DNA of 63,328 bases, counting the filler, from Rhabdomonas costata (Eukaryota): assembly GCA_019059605.1 (NCBI GenBank). It is 54 parts of 54 records of this genome, joined end to end, with 100 filler letters (N's around TTAATTAATTAA, not from the genome) between each part and the next. Parts side by side here need not be neighbours in the genome. Positions count along the whole stretch, not along the records: positions 49,337 to 50,411 come from JAHMHO010029968.1; positions 50,512 to 51,586 come from JAHMHO010029969.1; positions 51,687 to 52,761 come from JAHMHO010029970.1; 51 more parts are not named here. One strand, given 5' to 3'. Under the pieces are notes generated by a model. It ran no database searches, was not told the DNA's origin, and saw only the letters and a list, made by a program, of their open reading frames with translations. Positions 16,030-60,339 of the stretch are shown here, piece by piece. A program made the translations under genes and the position numbers. Numbering within the stretch: position 1 is the first letter of the stretch; each line of letters starts with the position of its first letter.

Positions 16030-16489
16030 CTGAGCGGTGAGAGAAAAGAGGCGCAACCACGCACGTGGCTGTTTGACTTTTGGAAAACAAGCAACAATAA
16101 TTTCGGGTCGAATTCCTGCTCTCCGCGATATGAGCGAACCCTCGGACATTTCAATCGCAGCGGACACACCGCGGGAAAGACGGCGACACTAAATGGCGGA
16201 TGACAAGCAGAGGATACTGTGCGGGCAGGACAAGTGCCTGTGACTTCAATTTTGCTCTGGGAGGTGGGCAATCGCTCGCCCCCTGATGAGACACCAGGCT
16301 GGGGTCCACAAAGCTTGCAAGCGGCACAAGTCAAAAAACAAAAANNNNNNNNNNNNNNNNNNNNNNNNNNNNNNNNNNNNNNNNNNNNTTAATTAATTAA
16401 NNNNNNNNNNNNNNNNNNNNNNNNNNNNNNNNNNNNNNNNNNNNGTTTGTTGGGTTGACTATTTAAATTATGCATATATATGTCAATTG

Positions 16490-17479
16490 ATGCTAACAAA
16501 TAAATATATCTATGAACTAATTTCATATATGCATCATGATATAAAAACAATGTTAATCAAATGTGCAACTATGATATTAAATTCTGGATCGACTATTTAT
16601 GGAGGTTTTTGTCGCGATATGCTCTTAGAAACTTATCAAAATAAAAAAGATTTATGTTCAGAAGTATGTCCCTTAGATATAGATATAAAAATGCCATATG
16701 ATCTTTTTGAATTAATATATACTATTTTAAAAGATGATTTATTAAGTGCAAGAGAAAAAAAGATTTTAATTAAAAGTAATGTTTGTTATTCATTTATTAG
16801 ATTATTTACTGAATATAATCATGATAAAGATGACATACAAATTATGAATGTTTCGATTATTCATTTATTTATGGATGATAATAATAAAAATTCTGTATCA
16901 ATAAATATTCATGATGCAAGTTTTTATAATTCTACATGTATACGTACAGTTATTTTATTCAATAGAAAATTTATTAAAATTGATATGACTCGTTCAGGAA
17001 TTGAATCCGATTTTAGTTGTAATTCTTGTTATATATTTAAAAATACATTGTTAGACAATCATCAAACAATGCATATTACATCAGAAGAATTAACTACATT
17101 TTTTAAAACAGAATGTAAATATACATATGACATCAAAGATCGTTTAATATTACATACTAATAGTGAATTTGATGATATTCTTGATATTACATTGCAATTA
17201 TCAAATCGTATTGCAAGATTTATGAATGTAATCGGATATCGATGTATATATTGTAATCGTTTTGTAATTAAATTAACAAGTGATCATGTTATTTATATGA
17301 AATATAAAAATAAACATACATGTTTTTTGTCTTTTGTACATAAACTTAGAAAACGAGCTCAAAAAATGATAGATAAAGGTTTCAAATTAATGATTATTCG
17401 TGAAATTATTGAATTTAAAGACATTGTATGGCCTACAGATTTTGTTTGGTCATGTGATTGTGGATTTAAAAAATATTAG
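16490..17479 (+). CDS. Intronless AT-rich ORF encoding a divergent class II nucleotidyltransferase (CCA-adding/poly(A) polymerase head-like); giant-virus-like
   Basis: About 329 aa with IYGGFCRD, DIDI and SDFSCN, corresponding to the GGxVRD, DxD and RDFTxN motifs. The contig is about 20-25% GC by eye, unlike the host contigs. The start codon is uncertain. Confidence 0.75.
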   Translation: MLTNKYIYELISYMHHDIKTMLIKCATMILNSGSTIYGGFCRDMLLETYQNKKDLCSEVCPLDIDIKMPYDLFELIYTILKDDLLSAREKKILIKSNVCYSFIRLFTEYNHDKDDIQIMNVSIIHLFMDDNNKNSVSINIHDASFYNSTCIRTVILFNRKFIKIDMTRSGIESDFSCNSCYIFKNTLLDNHQTMHITSEELTTFFKTECKYTYDIKDRLILHTNSEFDDILDITLQLSNRIARFMNVIGYRCIYCNRFVIKLTSDHVIYMKYKNKHTCFLSFVHKLRKRAQKMIDKGFKLMIIREIIEFKDIVWPTDFVWSCDCGFKKY

Positions 17480-17949
17480 ATGATCAAACAAAAATTCGAT
17501 CAATACTTGAAAAAAAACCNNNNNNNNNNNNNNNNNNNNNNNNNNNNNNNNNNNNNNNNNNNNTTAATTAATTAANNNNNNNNNNNNNNNNNNNNNNNNN
17601 NNNNNNNNNNNNNNNNNNNTGGGTCTTCCCGAGAACATCAGGAGGAATGAACATGTGCTTGGATTTCTCTCATGGCTTTTTGTTGGGGGGGGGGGCAGAC
17701 TTTTAGTATGCAGTCAGGTGATGCAGTCAAGCGGTCACATGAAAAATTACGATGTCCCAAAAGCTGTGAAGTGACGCAGCTCTGGCGGCCTGTGACTGGA
17801 GGGGCCTCTTTCCCGCCCGGACCCGGAAGTGGGATTTAAGATCGGGCAAATGCAGCCGTGTAGTCGTTACAGTTTAGGTGCAGTGAAAGCCAAAAGATGC
17901 GGTTAAGAATACTAATAAGGGTGAGGAGAACGACGAAGAGGGAGATCCC

Positions 17950-42494: not shown

Positions 42495-43350
42495 AGTGCA
42501 GGAGCGCTTATTCGAGAGCAATCGGTGACCTTCACGGGGTCCACCGCAAGTGCAACTGTGAGGAGAAGAGCAAGCTCCGGCGCACCTGATATGGGCTTCA
42601 CGCACAGTCCTCGGCCGTGCACGGTGGCTTGCTTCGACCTCAACGGATTTACTGCACTCACCGCTGCCAAGGACCTTGACAAGGTCGCTTTTCTAGCGAG
42701 GCTGTTTCTACATTTTTGGCCACTCTTGTCGGCTCTGAAGGTCTGTTGACTGGTTAAGTAGTTTAAACTCCCAACGACCCACAACTCAGGAGACGTTCAC
42801 GTGACATATGTGTGTTAGCGCATTGAGCGTTCGTGTGCGTCTCTCTGCACAGTCCGGCAGCTTTCACTCCGTGGGAATAATAATAATAACCTTCCGATAT
42901 GTTGATGGTCGATTCAAAGCGGTCCCGCCAAACCCTCGGCCTGCTCCCTTGCACAGCTGCAGCGCGTGTACCACCGCTACATCGAAGTGGTCCACGAGCA
43001 GGTCACTGCCCACCGCGGGATGGTGGACAAAGTCCTTGGGGACCGCGTGCTGGCGCTGTTCAACGTCCCACGGCGGTGCAGCCGAGCGGAATACCGTGCG
43101 GTGAAGTGTGCGTTGGAGGTGCTGGCGCAGTGGGACAGGGCACAGCTCCTTCCTCTCAATCCCTCTGCACCAGTCTTCTTGCCCAGTGGGGAGCAGATTT
43201 TGTCGCAGCGTGGGCTGGCCTATGCTGTGGCCACCCCTGCGATGGCCTTACCCTCGACCGCAGAGAGCTTTCCAGGCGCGGAGGAGGTCGACGTTCCCGT
43301 GCTGCTTGGGCTCCGCGTGGGCATCGCAAGCTCCCCTGTGAGCTTGCGAT
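42495..43350 (+). CDS. Class III adenylate/guanylate cyclase catalytic domain (exons about 42495-42683 and 42957 onward)
   Basis: TVACFDLNGFT...-LQRVYHRYIEVV...HRGMVDKVLGDRVLALFN...AVKCAL...LRVGIAS; both metal-binding Asp residues are present. Confidence 0.9.
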
Positions 43351-46300
43351 GCCCACACAACNNNNNNNNNNNNNNNNNNNNNNNNNNNNNNNNNNNNNNN
43401 NNNNNTTAATTAATTAANNNNNNNNNNNNNNNNNNNNNNNNNNNNNNNNNNNNNNNNNNNNGTGGGGGGTTGTACCAATATTTTGTGTCGATAATATTAC
43501 AGCGTCTGCGTTTTTGTGTCAATTATTGTTGCTTAGGTTTTAAGTACTGGGCTGTTGGATTTTGTGATTCATGTGGCTGTATCAGTATCTCGGACGCAGT
43601 TGCTTTCACGCACCACGCTCCCTATCACGGCTGGAGAAAGACAGTCACCCGAAGGATAACGAAACAGCCACGATAAGTACCGTCTACACAGTGCTTCTCT
43701 CTCTCTCCCTTATTCCTGCTTCGGCACATTCTTCTTGCGCTTCTTCTTGCGCTTCTTCTTGCGCTTGTTTGCGAGTAGAGTAAGTCTGGAGTCGTCCTCT
43801 TCACGACAACTGCCTTGAAACTGCCTCTGAACAGGAGTAACAAGCTGATTCAGGGTTTTCTTTTTGGTGCACAATGTTGACTTTGCAAAACATCTCTCTC
43901 AGCCGTGGACAAAAGACGTCGTCTCGCAGTGTCAGAGAGCGGTCGCCAAGTTTCCTTTCCTTTTTATAGGGGGTGAAGAAAGGAGAAGGGAAAGTTGAAA
44001 TGATTTTGGAAATGGATAGTTTGCGCCGTCGTCATTGATTTTCCCACATGGAGCCAGAATGGGATCGGATGAAACCAGATAATGTGGTTGATACCAGAGG
44101 GACAGGATGGAATTTTCTCCGACACCCAATTTGTCGTCATTCTAAGTCGACACACACCTTCCTTTTTATACGACCGCGTGGCGTACTTTCGTTTCTGTGA
44201 GTTTTTCATCCCGCCTTGCCTTCTCGCTGCAACCCCGAAAAGCAGTGCTTATCGGTTTATTTGCTCAACAAATGGCAATGGCATCACTCCTTCCAAAGGT
44301 AAATCCAAAGGTGCCGGTTTCCTAGCGCTCTCCCCTCCTGCAAAACCAAGACTCTCTTACTCAAGAATTCCACATGTTGTTCAACAATTTCCCACTTCCG
44401 TGACATGCAAGCATCATAACTCTCCACACGATTCTTCTACCGCGGCGAAAAACAGCACCAAATAATCAACATAGGGCAAATAAAGAGAACCATTCTTCCA
44501 GACAATTGTGGCTGCAGTCGTTCACCACCACCCACCNNNNNNNNNNNNNNNNNNNNNNNNNNNNNNNNNNNNNNNNNNNNTTAATTAATTAANNNNNNNN
44601 NNNNNNNNNNNNNNNNNNNNNNNNNNNNNNNNNNNNTTGTTTTGGGCACCTTATATCACTCCCGGGATTTATTGGCATCACCATCAGGGTGCCCGCGACC
44701 GCGAAAAATGCTTTCACCAGGATGGTCCTGGCCTACGTGGTGCCCATAACAGAAAAATTGGTGTAGCACCAGGCGGTGTTATGGAAACATAAATGGCCAG
44801 AAGCGTCAACCTGTCGATCATCATGCCGGACTTGAAGGAAGACGGCGCCCCACTTAAGTTGACCGTCGGGCATCCGGGGTCCCATACGGGAATGTCGCCA
44901 CTGACGCTCTTGCCGCGTCGGACTTGACATAACCAAAACGACGCACACGTCGCCGATCAAAACCAATCCGCTTAGGCGGTCCTTAGTCTGGCCGCGCGCC
45001 TCTCTTAGAAGCCGCGCAGTGCTGGATTCGGTGCTCCTGCTCCGGCGGACCCGCTTTATCATTGCGGGGCGATACCCGTAACAACGCAACAACGAGGTCC
45101 GAGGAGGAGCGCCCCTTCGTCGACGGCGCCGATTCGCTGGTCAGTGCGGCGGTTTTGGACATGAGCGCGTCGTGCGGCGGTGTCGCAGACAACAAAAACG
45201 GGGGACAGCGAGCGCGAGAGCAGCCGGGAAGATAGCGAGAAGAGCGAGGAACCCAGCCCAACCCAACCCAAAGGCCCAACAAGCCGTGGCACCCCGGGCC
45301 TGCCACCTTCGGGTCCAAGCTGGAAAGGGCACGCGCGGAACGGGATTTGCAAAAGGTCAGTGTTTCAGGGAAAGGGGACCAAGAAGCAGCAAAGAGTCAT
45401 AGCCCAACGTCGCAATGAGGGGAAAGGGGCAGCGATGGGTGCAAAGAACACTGCGCTTACGCAAGCACCTTGGAGGCAACAAACAGCGCCGCCTCGTCGG
45501 GGGTGTCGGGCCGCGCCAGCAGGGCCTTTCCGCGCTGCTCCGCGACGTCCGGGAAGAAGCACACCGTGGCTGTGGGGCGGTGCACCAGGGCCACCGCCTT
45601 CACAGAAACCACCACTACCAGCAACAGCTCCCAACGACTCTCCATCATTTCCATGTCACATGGCTTCTGTCTTTTAATCGCAAAAAACCATATACAAACC
45701 CAAAACAAACANNNNNNNNNNNNNNNNNNNNNNNNNNNNNNNNNNNNNNNNNNNNTTAATTAATTAANNNNNNNNNNNNNNNNNNNNNNNNNNNNNNNNN
45801 NNNNNNNNNNNGGGGGGTTTGGCACGGGAGCGTATATCGTCACACCACACCAAGAAAACCACGCTAACCACCATCAAAGGTTGAAATCGAACACAATGAA
45901 CAAAAATTGGTCGCTTGTTTTTGGGCCAGTTTTTTTTTTTGAAAAAAGCGGCATCAGTGTGTCCGCAGTCTTCGATTTGGGTGACCGGGACAGTGTGCAC
46001 GTATAATTAAGCTAAAAGGGGCAGGGTTGGGTTCAACCGTTAAACGGCGCTAACCGTAAGTTCCCCGCAACCCCTCTCCAAAAAAATGCCCCCATCACTG
46101 CTGTGAGATTGGCGAGGAAATCGCCTGTACTGAAGCAATAAGCATGGGACTGGTGTGGCGGGGTTCCAAGTACTGACCTCTTTTTGCAGCTGAAGGACCT
46201 TCTGCTGGGCCAGCCGGAGCTCTACCGAAGAGGCTCCCGAGGAAGGCCTTTGGGCCGAGGCTGCTTCCTGCTGGATAGCCGCCTGCCGAAGCTCGGCGAC

Positions 46301-49576: not shown

Positions 49577-50512
49577 GTCAGGGCACCGCAAGTTAGGGGC
49601 ACTTGGGGATACCGTACACTTTAAATGTCACCTTTTAGGGTTTAAAGCAACTATACTGCTGTGGGCAGGGACCAGCCCGTTGCTGGTTGTTAGCGGACGA
49701 GTCGAGCTGCATCAGTTCAGGAGTTGAGGCCAGCGGGAACGTGGTGTGGTGCGTTGAATAACGGCTTTATCGCACTATTGGAAAAGAGCATGCACACTCT
49801 CCAGGCGGTAAGAGCGAGCAGCCCCGTTCGGCGTGGTTGGTTTTTTGCAAATACGTTGTGGGTGCGCTCGTAAACCCTCCGCTGCCTGGAGCAAGAAGCC
49901 CCACAAAAGAGATGCGAAAGAGCCGCCCATGGGTGACGCAACCGGCCGAGGGTGAAATTCGGAAAATTCTCATACCCCAATGGCTAGCACGCAGTGTTTC
50001 GGGAGACCTGCTTTTTTGTAGAAAATACCCCACGCTTTGCTTCAGCAAAACCCTGCAAACTTAACTGCTCTAATGCCAACTCTTCTGTGCTGGGGTTCCT
50101 TGTCAGGTTTTGCTCTACGTTCAGCCTCAGGACAAGCAACTGCTCTTGGTCGAGGTATGGCGTCCCCTCCTGCACATCCCCCATATTTGATTTGTTGTTG
50201 TGTTGTTGGACTCCCTCTTTCACTGCTCTTTCCCTGTCCTTTTGGCATTGCCACCTTGACAAAAGTGGTGTTCCAAGAATCGCTTTTTTCTTTTTCTTTT
50301 TGTTGCGGAACATGGTATATCATGGATCATGTAATATATCGATGTGGCGGACACTCCATACCCTTTCACAGTTGCCTTCCCCGGCTCACCCCCCAAGACC
50401 AACACCCAACCNNNNNNNNNNNNNNNNNNNNNNNNNNNNNNNNNNNNNNNNNNNNTTAATTAATTAANNNNNNNNNNNNNNNNNNNNNNNNNNNNNNNNN
50501 NNNNNNNNNNNA

Positions 50513-51268
50513 ACATCAACAATTGATGTTACAAAATTAAAATTAATAGAACAACCGCCGCCTGTAGTTGCAAATAATGAAACTTCAGAACCATCTAGTG
50601 GATTTTTAATTGAAGATAAAACAACTGATTCTGAAGTTCATCCATCAACATCAAATGTTGAAATGCCTATTGAATTAATAAAATTTGTTAAAGACAAATT
50701 ATCACATGAATTTACTGAATTATTTGAAAAACCAATTGAAAAAATAATTGAAGTTCTTAAAGAAAAGACATCTGATGATGTTGTAAAATGGTTCAACAAA
50801 TCACCAAGTAAATTTATTGAATTATTTAAAGAACAAAAACAAAATTTTGAAAAAGCACCAGAAACAGAACCAAATACAACTTCGTCATCTGAAGAAATAC
50901 CTGAACATATTATGAAAGAATTAATGAAAGAAACAACAGATACTTCTGATAATAAAATAGTAGAAGAACATATTACTGTTAAAGAAGAACCTAAACAAGA
51001 TCTTGAACAAATAAGAAAATCAGAAATAACAGAATCCGAAAGTTCAAGTTGTAAAAAACAAAAAACATTATTAAAGAAACGTACTGACAAATCAGATAGT
51101 CCAAGTTTAGTAAAACAACAAACAGAAGAACTTAATTTAATGGCAAAACAAATTGAAAATGATATTGCAACTGTTAACGATATACCAGTAGATAGTGTTC
51201 GTATATCTGAAGCGACTTCTTCAGTTAAATGTAAAAAATCAAAATGTACAAGTAGTACTTCAGAATAA
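50513..51268 (+). CDS. AT-rich intronless ORF, 5'-truncated, E/K/S/T-rich hypothetical protein; giant-virus-like context
   Basis: Open from the contig start for 251 codons, with A/T at nearly all third positions. Confidence 0.8.
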   Translation, partial: TSTIDVTKLKLIEQPPPVVANNETSEPSSGFLIEDKTTDSEVHPSTSNVEMPIELIKFVKDKLSHEFTELFEKPIEKIIEVLKEKTSDDVVKWFNKSPSKFIELFKEQKQNFEKAPETEPNTTSSSEEIPEHIMKELMKETTDTSDNKIVEEHITVKEEPKQDLEQIRKSEITESESSSCKKQKTLLKKRTDKSDSPSLVKQQTEELNLMAKQIENDIATVNDIPVDSVRISEATSSVKCKKSKCTSSTSE

Positions 51269-51270
51269 AT

Positions 51271-51344
51271 TAAATTATATTTGTGATAACAAATATAATT
51301 TATCAATAATATTTGTTAATTATAAAATTAAATTTTATAATTAA
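51271..51344. terminator. Two tandem perfect AT-rich hairpins immediately after the stop codon
   Basis: TAAATTATATTTGT-gata-ACAAATATAATTTA (14 bp, 51271-51302) and TTAATTATAAAAT-taa-ATTTTATAATTAA (13 bp, 51316-51344). Confidence 0.7.
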
Positions 51345-51399
51345 AATCATTCATTTATGCAAATTAATTTTTATATAAAAAATATCGTATGATATCTTA

Positions 51400-51580
51400 A
51401 TGAGTAAAATAACAGATGTTTTCGGGAATATTGTATTTAATAGAAACATACCTATCTTATTAATTCATACAAAATTACCAAGTACATTTTTTATAAAACT
51501 TTCCTTTACAGCTGATAATTCCATTTGGACAATTAACAAATCTGTTTTATCATCATTTATATTAAAAAATAAAATAAACC
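51400..51580 (+). CDS. AT-rich hypothetical ORF, 3'-truncated
   Basis: ATG 131 nt after the previous stop; open to the contig end; same codon bias as the upstream ORF. Confidence 0.6.
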
Positions 51581-51734
51581 CACACCNNNNNNNNNNNNNN
51601 NNNNNNNNNNNNNNNNNNNNNNNNNNNNNNTTAATTAATTAANNNNNNNNNNNNNNNNNNNNNNNNNNNNNNNNNNNNNNNNNNNNGGTTGTTTGTGGTA
51701 AGGGGGCCCACGCCATGTCCGCGCTAACGGGAAG

Positions 51735-52574
51735 AAGTACTTGCATCCCGTTAGCGCGGACATGGCGTGGGCACCCTTACCACCATCAATCTCAGCGTAG
51801 CCCCCGTAGAGCTTCGCGAAGGCCTTTTCGATCAGAGTGGGCCAAAGCTCGGCTCGAGCGCCAGAGCGGCACAGCACCACAGCTTGCGTCTCTGAAAAAG
51901 AAACGAAGGAAGGGTGAGCGTCAGCGTGATTGTTGTGGGAAACTTATTATCCAGCTCTGAACATGTGAAGACTACTACATCTATCAAAGTGGGATCTATA
52001 TAATTGGAGTCTAACTTCGATGCCATTGTTCACCTCGCACCATTCAAAGCAAAAAGCAAGAAGTAAAAGGCAAAATCAGTCCTCGTTCACACATTACAAC
52101 ACCAAAACTGGAAGAACAAGCGCGATGCATCCTATAACAAATCTGCAGACAGAATAACCCAGCATTGAATTAAGTCACGCAAAAGACAAAGAAAGGTATA
52201 TCCACACTTGGGTGCACAGGCACGCGGTTGTGTACGCAGACGCGGATCGGACGCCCCTCCGGCCGGAACTCGAACTCGTACACCCCGTACCTCTCGTCCA
52301 TCCGAGGCGCCAGCACCTTCAGCCCCACCGACTCCAGCCGCACCGCCGTGGCCAGCGAGGCCAGGAACCAGCAGTCCCCTAGAGATCCCTGATGCAAGTC
52401 GCTTACCTTGCTGCCTTCCAGCTGGAACACCTCCTTGCCGTCGAACAGGCGGTGGGCGGGGGCCCACATCCGAGGGCTCCATGGGACCCAGTTGTACCAC
52501 TTCTTGAGGTGGGTGAGGTCGGGGAGGTCCGGATCCACCCAGTGTCTGCCAGTCTGCTGGCACTGGGATACAAT
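51735..52574 (-). CDS. Calpain-family cysteine protease (CysPc domain), two exons (52574-52208 and 51891 to about 51735)
   Basis: WVDPDLP...DLHQGSLGDCWFLASLA...GVYEFEF...ELWPTLIEKAFAKLYGGYAEIDGG...AMSALTG; catalytic Cys intact; phase-1 GT-AG join. Confidence 0.95.
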
Positions 52575-59648: not shown

Positions 59649-60339
59649 TGATCCTGGAAACCGTGCATCGCCAAGTCAACTGCTCATATTCTATTTGCTA
59701 TTTTTGCACACGGTATTGATGGTGTACCCCGTAGTTGAAGACAGAGAAGAAGCGCTGGAGCCTTCCTTTAAAGGAAGGCTCCAGCGCTTCTTCTCTGTCT
59801 TCAACAACCCCNNNNNNNNNNNNNNNNNNNNNNNNNNNNNNNNNNNNNNNNNNNNTTAATTAATTAANNNNNNNNNNNNNNNNNNNNNNNNNNNNNNNNN
59901 NNNNNNNNNNNAAAATTAGACCAAAATTTGGTAGATGGAGGAGCATTTTGTGTTGGGAGAGGATATGGTGAGAGGTCGAGGAGATAGGCCACCTTTTCCA
60001 GCGGGAAGTGAAAGGACGCGGATCCCCACCCCTCCAAGACGAGGTAATTTGCCAGAAATGCCACATCAGAGAGGCATATAAAGTGATCTGGCTTTACCGT
60101 TGCAAGCTCAGTGCTGGAGGAAGCGAAAGCTCCGGAGCTACCTAACCTGGCACGTTTCTACTTCGGGATCCCAGCGCATGCGCGCTGGCCCAACATAAGA
60201 GCCAGAAGATTGGCGGAAAGTCTAATGGATCGAAACATCTAAACGGAGAAAGAAATTCAACGTGACAAAGAAAGAGCTACTGGAGACGTGGCATCATGGG
60301 CGTATTTTTGAGTCGAATTTGCGGTGCAATATCATCTGT

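Follow-up and report, generated by a model that had tools for sequence, protein, structure and literature searches.

The 1075-bp contig at 50512-51586 is best read as a piece of a klosneuvirus-like member of the Mimiviridae that is present in multiple copies, has become part of the nuclear DNA of a euglenid-like host and has partly decayed, with the contig itself most likely coming from a young, still intact copy. We hold this composite reading with moderate confidence. The contig carries the end of a predicted protease gene, followed by two perfect A/T-rich hairpins directly after the stop codon.

The window, the whole stretch of 63,328 nucleotides that was analyzed, is made up of 54 contigs, each about 1075 bp long and unrelated to the others, joined by N-linkers. 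The focal contig is C29969 of assembly G000 (97 Mb, 104,289 contigs) and has N-linkers on either side. Its GC content is 24.2%, while the majority of contigs in the assembly are at about 52%. It is the second AT-rich contig of the window, as an earlier note on this DNA had said, since 2 of the 54 contigs fall below 30% GC. A sample of 60 drawn by contig number held one AT-rich contig. If these contig samples are representative, AT-rich DNA would amount to roughly 1-4 Mb of the assembly; the 20 lowest-numbered contigs hold no viral DNA. By 4-mer profile the focal contig correlates with pooled viral contigs at r 0.92 and with host contigs at 0.03. A k-mer comparison with the other AT-rich contig of the window, which the earlier note had suggested, gives a correlation of 0.87. 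The features are as follows.

50513..51268, plus strand: ORF1, 3' part, 251 codons with an acidic low-complexity tail; predicted giant-virus Deg/HtrA-type serine protease gene
51269..51399, no strand: spacer of 131 nt, 10% GC, between the ORF1 stop and the ATG at 51400
51271..51302, plus strand: perfect 14-bp hairpin, loop of 4; candidate cleavage/polyadenylation signal of the protease mRNA
51316..51344, no strand: perfect 13-bp hairpin, all A/T, loop of 3; candidate second or back-up signal
51400..51579, plus strand: ORF2, possible second gene, start only, 60 codons, orphan; weak coding status
51580..51586, no strand: contig end with a C/A-rich tail, probably in part an amplification-primer remnant
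16445..17519, plus strand: the other AT-rich contig of the window, with a 344-aa ORF; nearest to Nucleocytoviricota clusters, 4-mer profile like that of the focal contig

Members of the clusters nearest to the 344-aa ORF carry a Gad2-like annotation in 12-34% of cases. Read by eye, this ORF also has a nucleotidyltransferase-like motif.

The protease gene and the hairpins behind it

ORF1 reads open from 50513 up to its stop, the TAA at 51266-51268. Its contig overlaps G000:C28602 by 124 identical bases, and C28602 overlaps G000:C71936 by 127. The trypsin and PDZ parts of the protease lie on these overlapping contigs and match Pfam Trypsin_2 (E 2.4e-21) and PDZ_3 (E 1e-10); the His, Asp and Ser motifs of the triad, read by eye, are intact. 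By these domain matches the gene is predicted to encode a Deg/HtrA (S1C)-type protease, in which a trypsin domain with the triad is followed by PDZ, with a long acidic tail.

A library search with the protease returned 281 relatives, and those with a name are called 'S1-C subfamily serine protease'. Single-sequence searches with the PDZ part and the protease domain gave no match in viral contigs or in a word-indexed protein set, and an alignment query was needed to find the viral relatives. The best ten alignment matches in viral contigs are 39-48% identical to the protease domain, and 59 of the 80 viral loci matched carry GVMAG names. On the prokaryote side, the best ten among the matches listed are 31-37% identical. 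In a phylogeny built only from viral (40) and prokaryote (39) sequences, a 100/99 branch has the ORF1 gene on its viral side. As judged from this tree, the protease groups with giant-virus homologues. At least three haplotypes of ORF1 occur within one sample, and between intact copies all four differences in the protease domain are synonymous.

The 14-bp hairpin begins 2 nt past the ORF1 stop, and the 13-bp hairpin follows it. The earlier note had reported both, as well as almost pure A/T stems with no GC-rich core and no U-tail, and this description holds in full: stem GC is 9% and 0%, and no T-run lies behind either hairpin. The features of a bacterial intrinsic terminator, a G+C-rich stem plus a U run, are thus absent at both. 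The note had also cautioned that very AT-rich DNA forms palindromes more easily by chance. At least one hairpin of 13 bp arose in 17 of 5000 dinucleotide shuffles of the 131-nt spacer, and two such hairpins arose in none of the 5000. The RNA fold has a z of -2.6. A 514-nt contig from a public sequencing run covers both hairpins, which are identical there, with four differences at other places. The three public runs represent one sample, perhaps the source of the window, and this contig is not independent.

Two co-oriented ORFs with a gap of 131 nt had been described. The gap is as stated; the shared orientation is likely. ORF2 scores like a shadow frame. The codon model gives it 3.7 bits, with true frames at 20.8 +/- 7.7 and shadow frames at 4.2 +/- 7.6, and it has no Pfam match. 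The frame opposite ORF2 scores 11.1 bits. Reading past the contig end in a public run, by eye, leaves the plus frame of ORF2 open and closes the opposite frame, which makes co-orientation with ORF1 likely. It also speaks against a convergent gene of which ORF2 would be the shadow, a possibility with weak codon support that we set aside.

The C/A-rich tail behind ORF2 is probably, in part, a remnant of an amplification primer. Primer-like tails and fold-back chimeras also occur at contig ends elsewhere in the assembly, which points to amplified low-input DNA. Three GC-rich contigs of the window have perfect inverted repeats near their ends (17 bp at 43317-43356, 27 bp at 51706-51772 and 34 bp at 59734-59805); these are probably fold-back chimeras.

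We propose that the focal contig derives from the genome of a member of the Mimiviridae, one that most resembles the Klosneuvirinae, and bears the final part of a viral gene for a Deg/HtrA protease. The protease transcript would fold into an A/U hairpin after its stop codon, the viral tandem RNase III would nick this hairpin, and the viral poly(A) polymerase would tail the nicked mRNA. The second hairpin may act as a back-up signal. From the analogy with Mimivirus and Megavirus, for which hairpin cutting by RNase III and tailing by the poly(A) polymerase are reported in the available text (PMC4402537), we infer that the hairpins serve 3'-end formation of this mRNA. If the focal copy is a silent insertion, they would be the fossil of such a signal.

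Gene-end hairpins and viral genes across the assembly

AT-rich contigs were collected blind to hairpins, by marker genes, the promoter word and an A/T run ahead of ATG. The focal contig, near-duplicates and terminal fold-backs (L001, L002, L011, L061, L081, L084-L086, L096, L101, L370, L373-L376 and some partial duplicates) were left out, and the remaining set comprised 66 contigs with 20 usable gene ends. A perfect hairpin of at least 13 bp is found at 5 of the 20, against a shuffle mean of 0.06, and none of 200 shuffles reached this number; the enrichment over shuffled controls that the earlier note had looked to is thus present. Relaxed hairpins, allowing one mismatch and G-U pairs, stand at 9 of the 20 ends (shuffle mean 1.04). 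The coding DNA of the AT-rich contigs, 25,828 nt in all, has no perfect hairpin of at least 13 bp, and none of 100 host ORF ends is followed by a hairpin. Two sets of related IMG/VR viral contigs have relaxed hairpins in 53 of 200 cases (8.3 expected) and 20 of 131 (5.9 expected), with perfect hairpins in only 4 of 200 and 5 of 131. The hairpins of the present lineage are thus unusually perfect.

The assembly also contains genes for both enzymes of the proposed pathway. The only PDB matches of a poly(A) polymerase with 21.6% GC are 4WSE and 4P37, which we take to be the Mimivirus and Megavirus poly(A) polymerases. A tandem RNase III of 421 aa has 21% GC; its single-sequence fold was unusable (pLDDT 33.5). 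The two genes lie on separate 1-kb contigs that end inside genes, fragments too short to show a three-gene cluster. The early promoter, for which a search had been suggested, gave a divided result: AAAATTGA plus 14 A/T occurs 59 times in the assembly, against 5 for the reversed word, but the word is absent from the 131-nt spacer and from the whole focal contig. Double jelly-roll capsid genes account for five matches on four contigs, and an NAD-dependent ligase and the RNA polymerase subunit RPB5 are also found on the viral contigs.

With gene-end enrichment, hairpin-rule enzymes, early promoter and capsid genes all present, a Mimiviridae-like origin of the focal contig is very likely. The earlier note had taken the hairpins as independent, non-protein evidence for such a genome. 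Its reading is supported; the family, however, is assigned from proteins. Marseilleviridae and Pithovirus also use the hairpin rule, according to the accessible text of two papers (PMC5413956, PMC4402537), and hairpins alone therefore cannot fix the family.

For placement within the family we turned to a capsid paralogue, modeled at pLDDT 85. Its best match is Terrestrivirus A0A3G4ZLR0 (49% identity, E 2.8e-54; next match 6.5e-26), a virus filed under Klosneuvirinae at NCBI, and it shares only 13% identity with the ASFV capsid. A PDB search with the capsid gave 11 matches, none of them a Mimiviridae capsid, and so leaves the virus unplaced. Assignment of the focal virus to the Klosneuvirinae is probable, the subfamily resting on this one paralogue. 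None of the 13 family-B DNA polymerase matches in the assembly is of low GC, all 13 lying on contigs of 46-56% GC; this is weak evidence because the assembly is fragmentary.

Several further observations concern the viral gene content. Contig L010 (G000:C6785) has two tandem capsid-family genes at 24% GC. Fragments of the main capsid, on L008 and L012, have 34-40% GC. L093, which by eye resembled a capping enzyme, has no Pfam or PDB support and was not counted. An expanded translation gene set is a feature of the Klosneuvirinae. The minus strand of L072 (G000:C29871) encodes, at 1-939, a PCIF1-like cap methyltransferase domain (PF12237, E 8.8e-25), in a gene that is AT-rich, of viral type and oriented head to head with RPB5. 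This gene is of interest because euglenozoan mRNA caps are heavily methylated.

Host, copies and decay

Paraflagellar-rod genes occur as exons on contigs of 50-55% GC, and the main 18S is 1988 nt over 1259 model positions, some 730 nt longer than the model. Together these place the host in the Euglenozoa. It is probably a euglenid, on the basis of its introns and of its 18S features. A second 18S on L006 (G000:C25815) looks plant- or green-alga-like by eye, and L034 (G000:C60993) carries a polymerase alpha fragment with an intron, fungus-like by eye and 49% GC; the sample thus contains DNA of other organisms. L007 (G000:C29023) is a degenerate 18S-like fragment, possibly an rDNA pseudogene.

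RPB5 is a single-copy gene in a virus. Here, four different RPB5 sequences cover one stretch (L085, L096, L084, L011), and L061 adds to them. RPB5 is intact in L085 and L096 and frameshifted in L011, L061 and L084. These three frameshifted contigs share 90-96% identity with the intact one, which puts intact and broken copies in a single close lineage. Eight of the nine differences between L085 and L096 are synonymous. The pN/pS ratio is 0.18 when pooled over 11 copy pairs that are not independent, and 0.03 between two intact RPB5 starts. Such low values indicate that the copies diverged as working viruses and that some were broken later.

L011 (G000:C6302) is a decayed viral contig in which the start of RPB5 is frameshifted, the promoter is lost and a microsatellite with three telomere-type repeats stands in its place; the capsid gene of this contig is split over two frames, with a stop. 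Neither CpG loss (0.83 vs 0.82) nor a GC-to-AT bias, looked for as a sign of methylation-type decay, was found in the decayed copies. L011 also carries a fragment of an aminotransferase class V gene. Elsewhere, the AT-rich gene sets L364, L366, L369, L370, L373 and L368, L374-L376 are each repeated as four to five copies that are 75-98% identical.

On L046 a host element ends at base 729, and DNA of 25% GC with a promoter starts directly after it. Three other copies of the element share this terminus and have different flanks; the element, with 40 of 79 candidates scored, matches the assembly at least 54 times and is IS1595/Merlin-type by a Pfam match below the cut-off (E 1.8e-4). The AT-rich part is viral by composition and promoter only, its kinase remnant being weak (Pfam E 0.035) and a homologue search for it empty. 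Compared with a small host sample, four of the 69 contigs tested, which are AT-rich or of mixed composition, carry host repeats (L046, L069, L070, L090). The focal contig shows no host junction or gene break, and among contigs that reach 8 kb at the longest, none has viral DNA between two host flanks. The library was amplified and has chimeric ends (L002, L006, L008, L063), which makes single host-virus junctions suspect.

The ORFs behind early promoters include 11 of 29 with 40-59% GC. They lie on L062 (G000:C17059), L057, L065, L067, L069, L071, L081, L083, L107 and L109, and on the host-like contig L068. On L062 the 59% GC ORF and its promoter stand just past an intact RPB5 and the RPB5 hairpin. 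Such ORFs may be host-like early genes or recent captures.

Duplicated markers, frameshifts and transposon invasion are all signs of an eroding endogenous element. The several versions of RPB5, the frameshifts, the decayed capsid gene and the exact transposon end point to multi-copy endogenous klosneuvirus-like elements. We consider it likely that some of the viral copies are endogenous, and for the focal contig itself we lean, less firmly, the same way. The earlier note had treated binning with a cellular genome as fatal to a viral origin. This does not apply here, as part of the viral DNA apparently lies inside the host genome, as the copies and the junction suggest.

The main competitor is a free virus that infected the cells, was eaten by them or stuck to them. 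It would be a mixture of strains, accompanied by older endogenous relics or by amplification artifacts. The intact protease gene and hairpins of the focal contig would fit it, as would the mostly synonymous differences between intact copies in the protease domain and RPB5 and the presence of other organisms' DNA in the sample. Against it are the close kinship of the three frameshifted RPB5 contigs with the intact one and the host repeats within promoter-bearing AT-rich DNA, and we regard a free virus as possible but doubtful. The wider distribution of the hairpin rule, together with the lack of a hallmark gene on the focal contig, leaves room for another hairpin-using group or a small virus sharing the sample (Marseilleviridae, Pithovirus-like or Polinton-like). 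This is improbable, given that the protease has its relatives on giant-virus MAG contigs and that the composition matches the contigs that encode the Mimivirus-type poly(A) polymerase and the capsids. DNA of an AT-rich bacterial symbiont or organelle, with the hairpins as terminators or chance products, is a still weaker candidate and largely refuted: the stems and the missing T-run speak against terminators, the shuffles rule out chance, and the tree puts the protease with viral sequences, although HtrA-type proteases are common in bacteria and closer prokaryote relatives may exist beyond the matches listed. Fold-back during amplification is the least credible source of the hairpins. Such chimeras are common at contig ends in this assembly (L008, L063), but both hairpins are internal, short and surrounded by unique sequence, a variant haplotype has both unchanged, and the coding DNA surveyed has none.

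Under the endogenous reading that we favor, the assembly would contain several related viral genomes whose divergence was constrained by purifying selection, which moved into the nuclear DNA of a euglenid-like host and have decayed in part. The virus family concerned is thought to replicate wholly in the cytoplasm. We suggest tentatively, as a possibility short of probable, that repeated integration into the nuclear genome of a euglenid belongs to the life cycle of a klosneuvirus-like virus and leaves a series of copies that runs from intact to decayed, and that this virus carries host-like GC-rich genes behind its early promoters. If so, the intact end of the series preserves promoter, hairpins and mRNA-processing genes, and the integrated copies would give a dated series of a cytoplasmic giant virus entering the nucleus. 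Integrated, decaying copies would also link the klosneuvirus-like lineage to a euglenid host.

Relation to known systems

The hairpin signal is textbook knowledge for mimiviruses, and to our knowledge the hosts of most klosneuviruses are unknown. As the rule itself is already known, our results point to a euglenozoan host and multi-copy endogenous klosneuvirus-like elements as the addition. In the available text of the sources, a 2021 review gives virus infection of euglenids as lacking experimental verification (PMC8061765), a 2025 Euglena study describes Asfuvirales elements only (PMC12455990), and the main text of a 2026 catalogue of GEVE hosts has no mention of euglenids (PMC13524828). The full-text literature searched, with subscription papers and supplements outside its scope, describes no endogenous member of the Klosneuvirinae from a euglenid. 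The pairing of a klosneuvirus-like virus with a euglenid-like host is likely to be new and, if repeated integration is true, would make the first case of Imitervirales paired with a euglenid in the literature searched.

The 3' signals most resemble those of Mimivirus and Megavirus, as far as the consulted text describes them (PMC4402537). The same A/T palindromes follow the stops there under the hairpin rule (R341 poly(A) polymerase, R343 RNase III), and both systems have a viral poly(A) polymerase, a tandem RNase III and the AAAATTGA early promoter. Cleavage and tailing were observed in those viruses, whereas here they are predicted from sequence, and the three-gene cluster found there is one that our contigs are too short to show.

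Bodo saltans virus, of the Klosneuvirinae, offers the same combination of a virus of about 25% GC and a euglenozoan host of about 50% GC, in the accessible part of its description (PMC5871332). It shares the 3' palindromes, for which the hairpin rule was predicted, as well as the promoter, there AAAAATTGA, RNase III and poly(A) polymerase. It is an isolated free virus of a kinetoplastid, whereas the viral core genes here are multi-copy and partly broken and the host, unlike that system, has intron-split genes. Terrestrivirus sp. (Klosneuvirinae), a soil metagenome genome compared by one gene only, is the best match of the capsid paralogue in both structure and sequence (A0A3G4ZLR0, 49%). The giant endogenous elements of Euglena gracilis, in the text available (PMC12455990), present the same picture of low-GC viral DNA in a euglenid of 51% GC, with duplicated markers and transposon invasion. 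Those elements belong to the Asfuvirales and were resolved in a chromosome-level assembly, whereas the present ones are Imitervirales-like and seen only on contigs of 0.2-4 kb.
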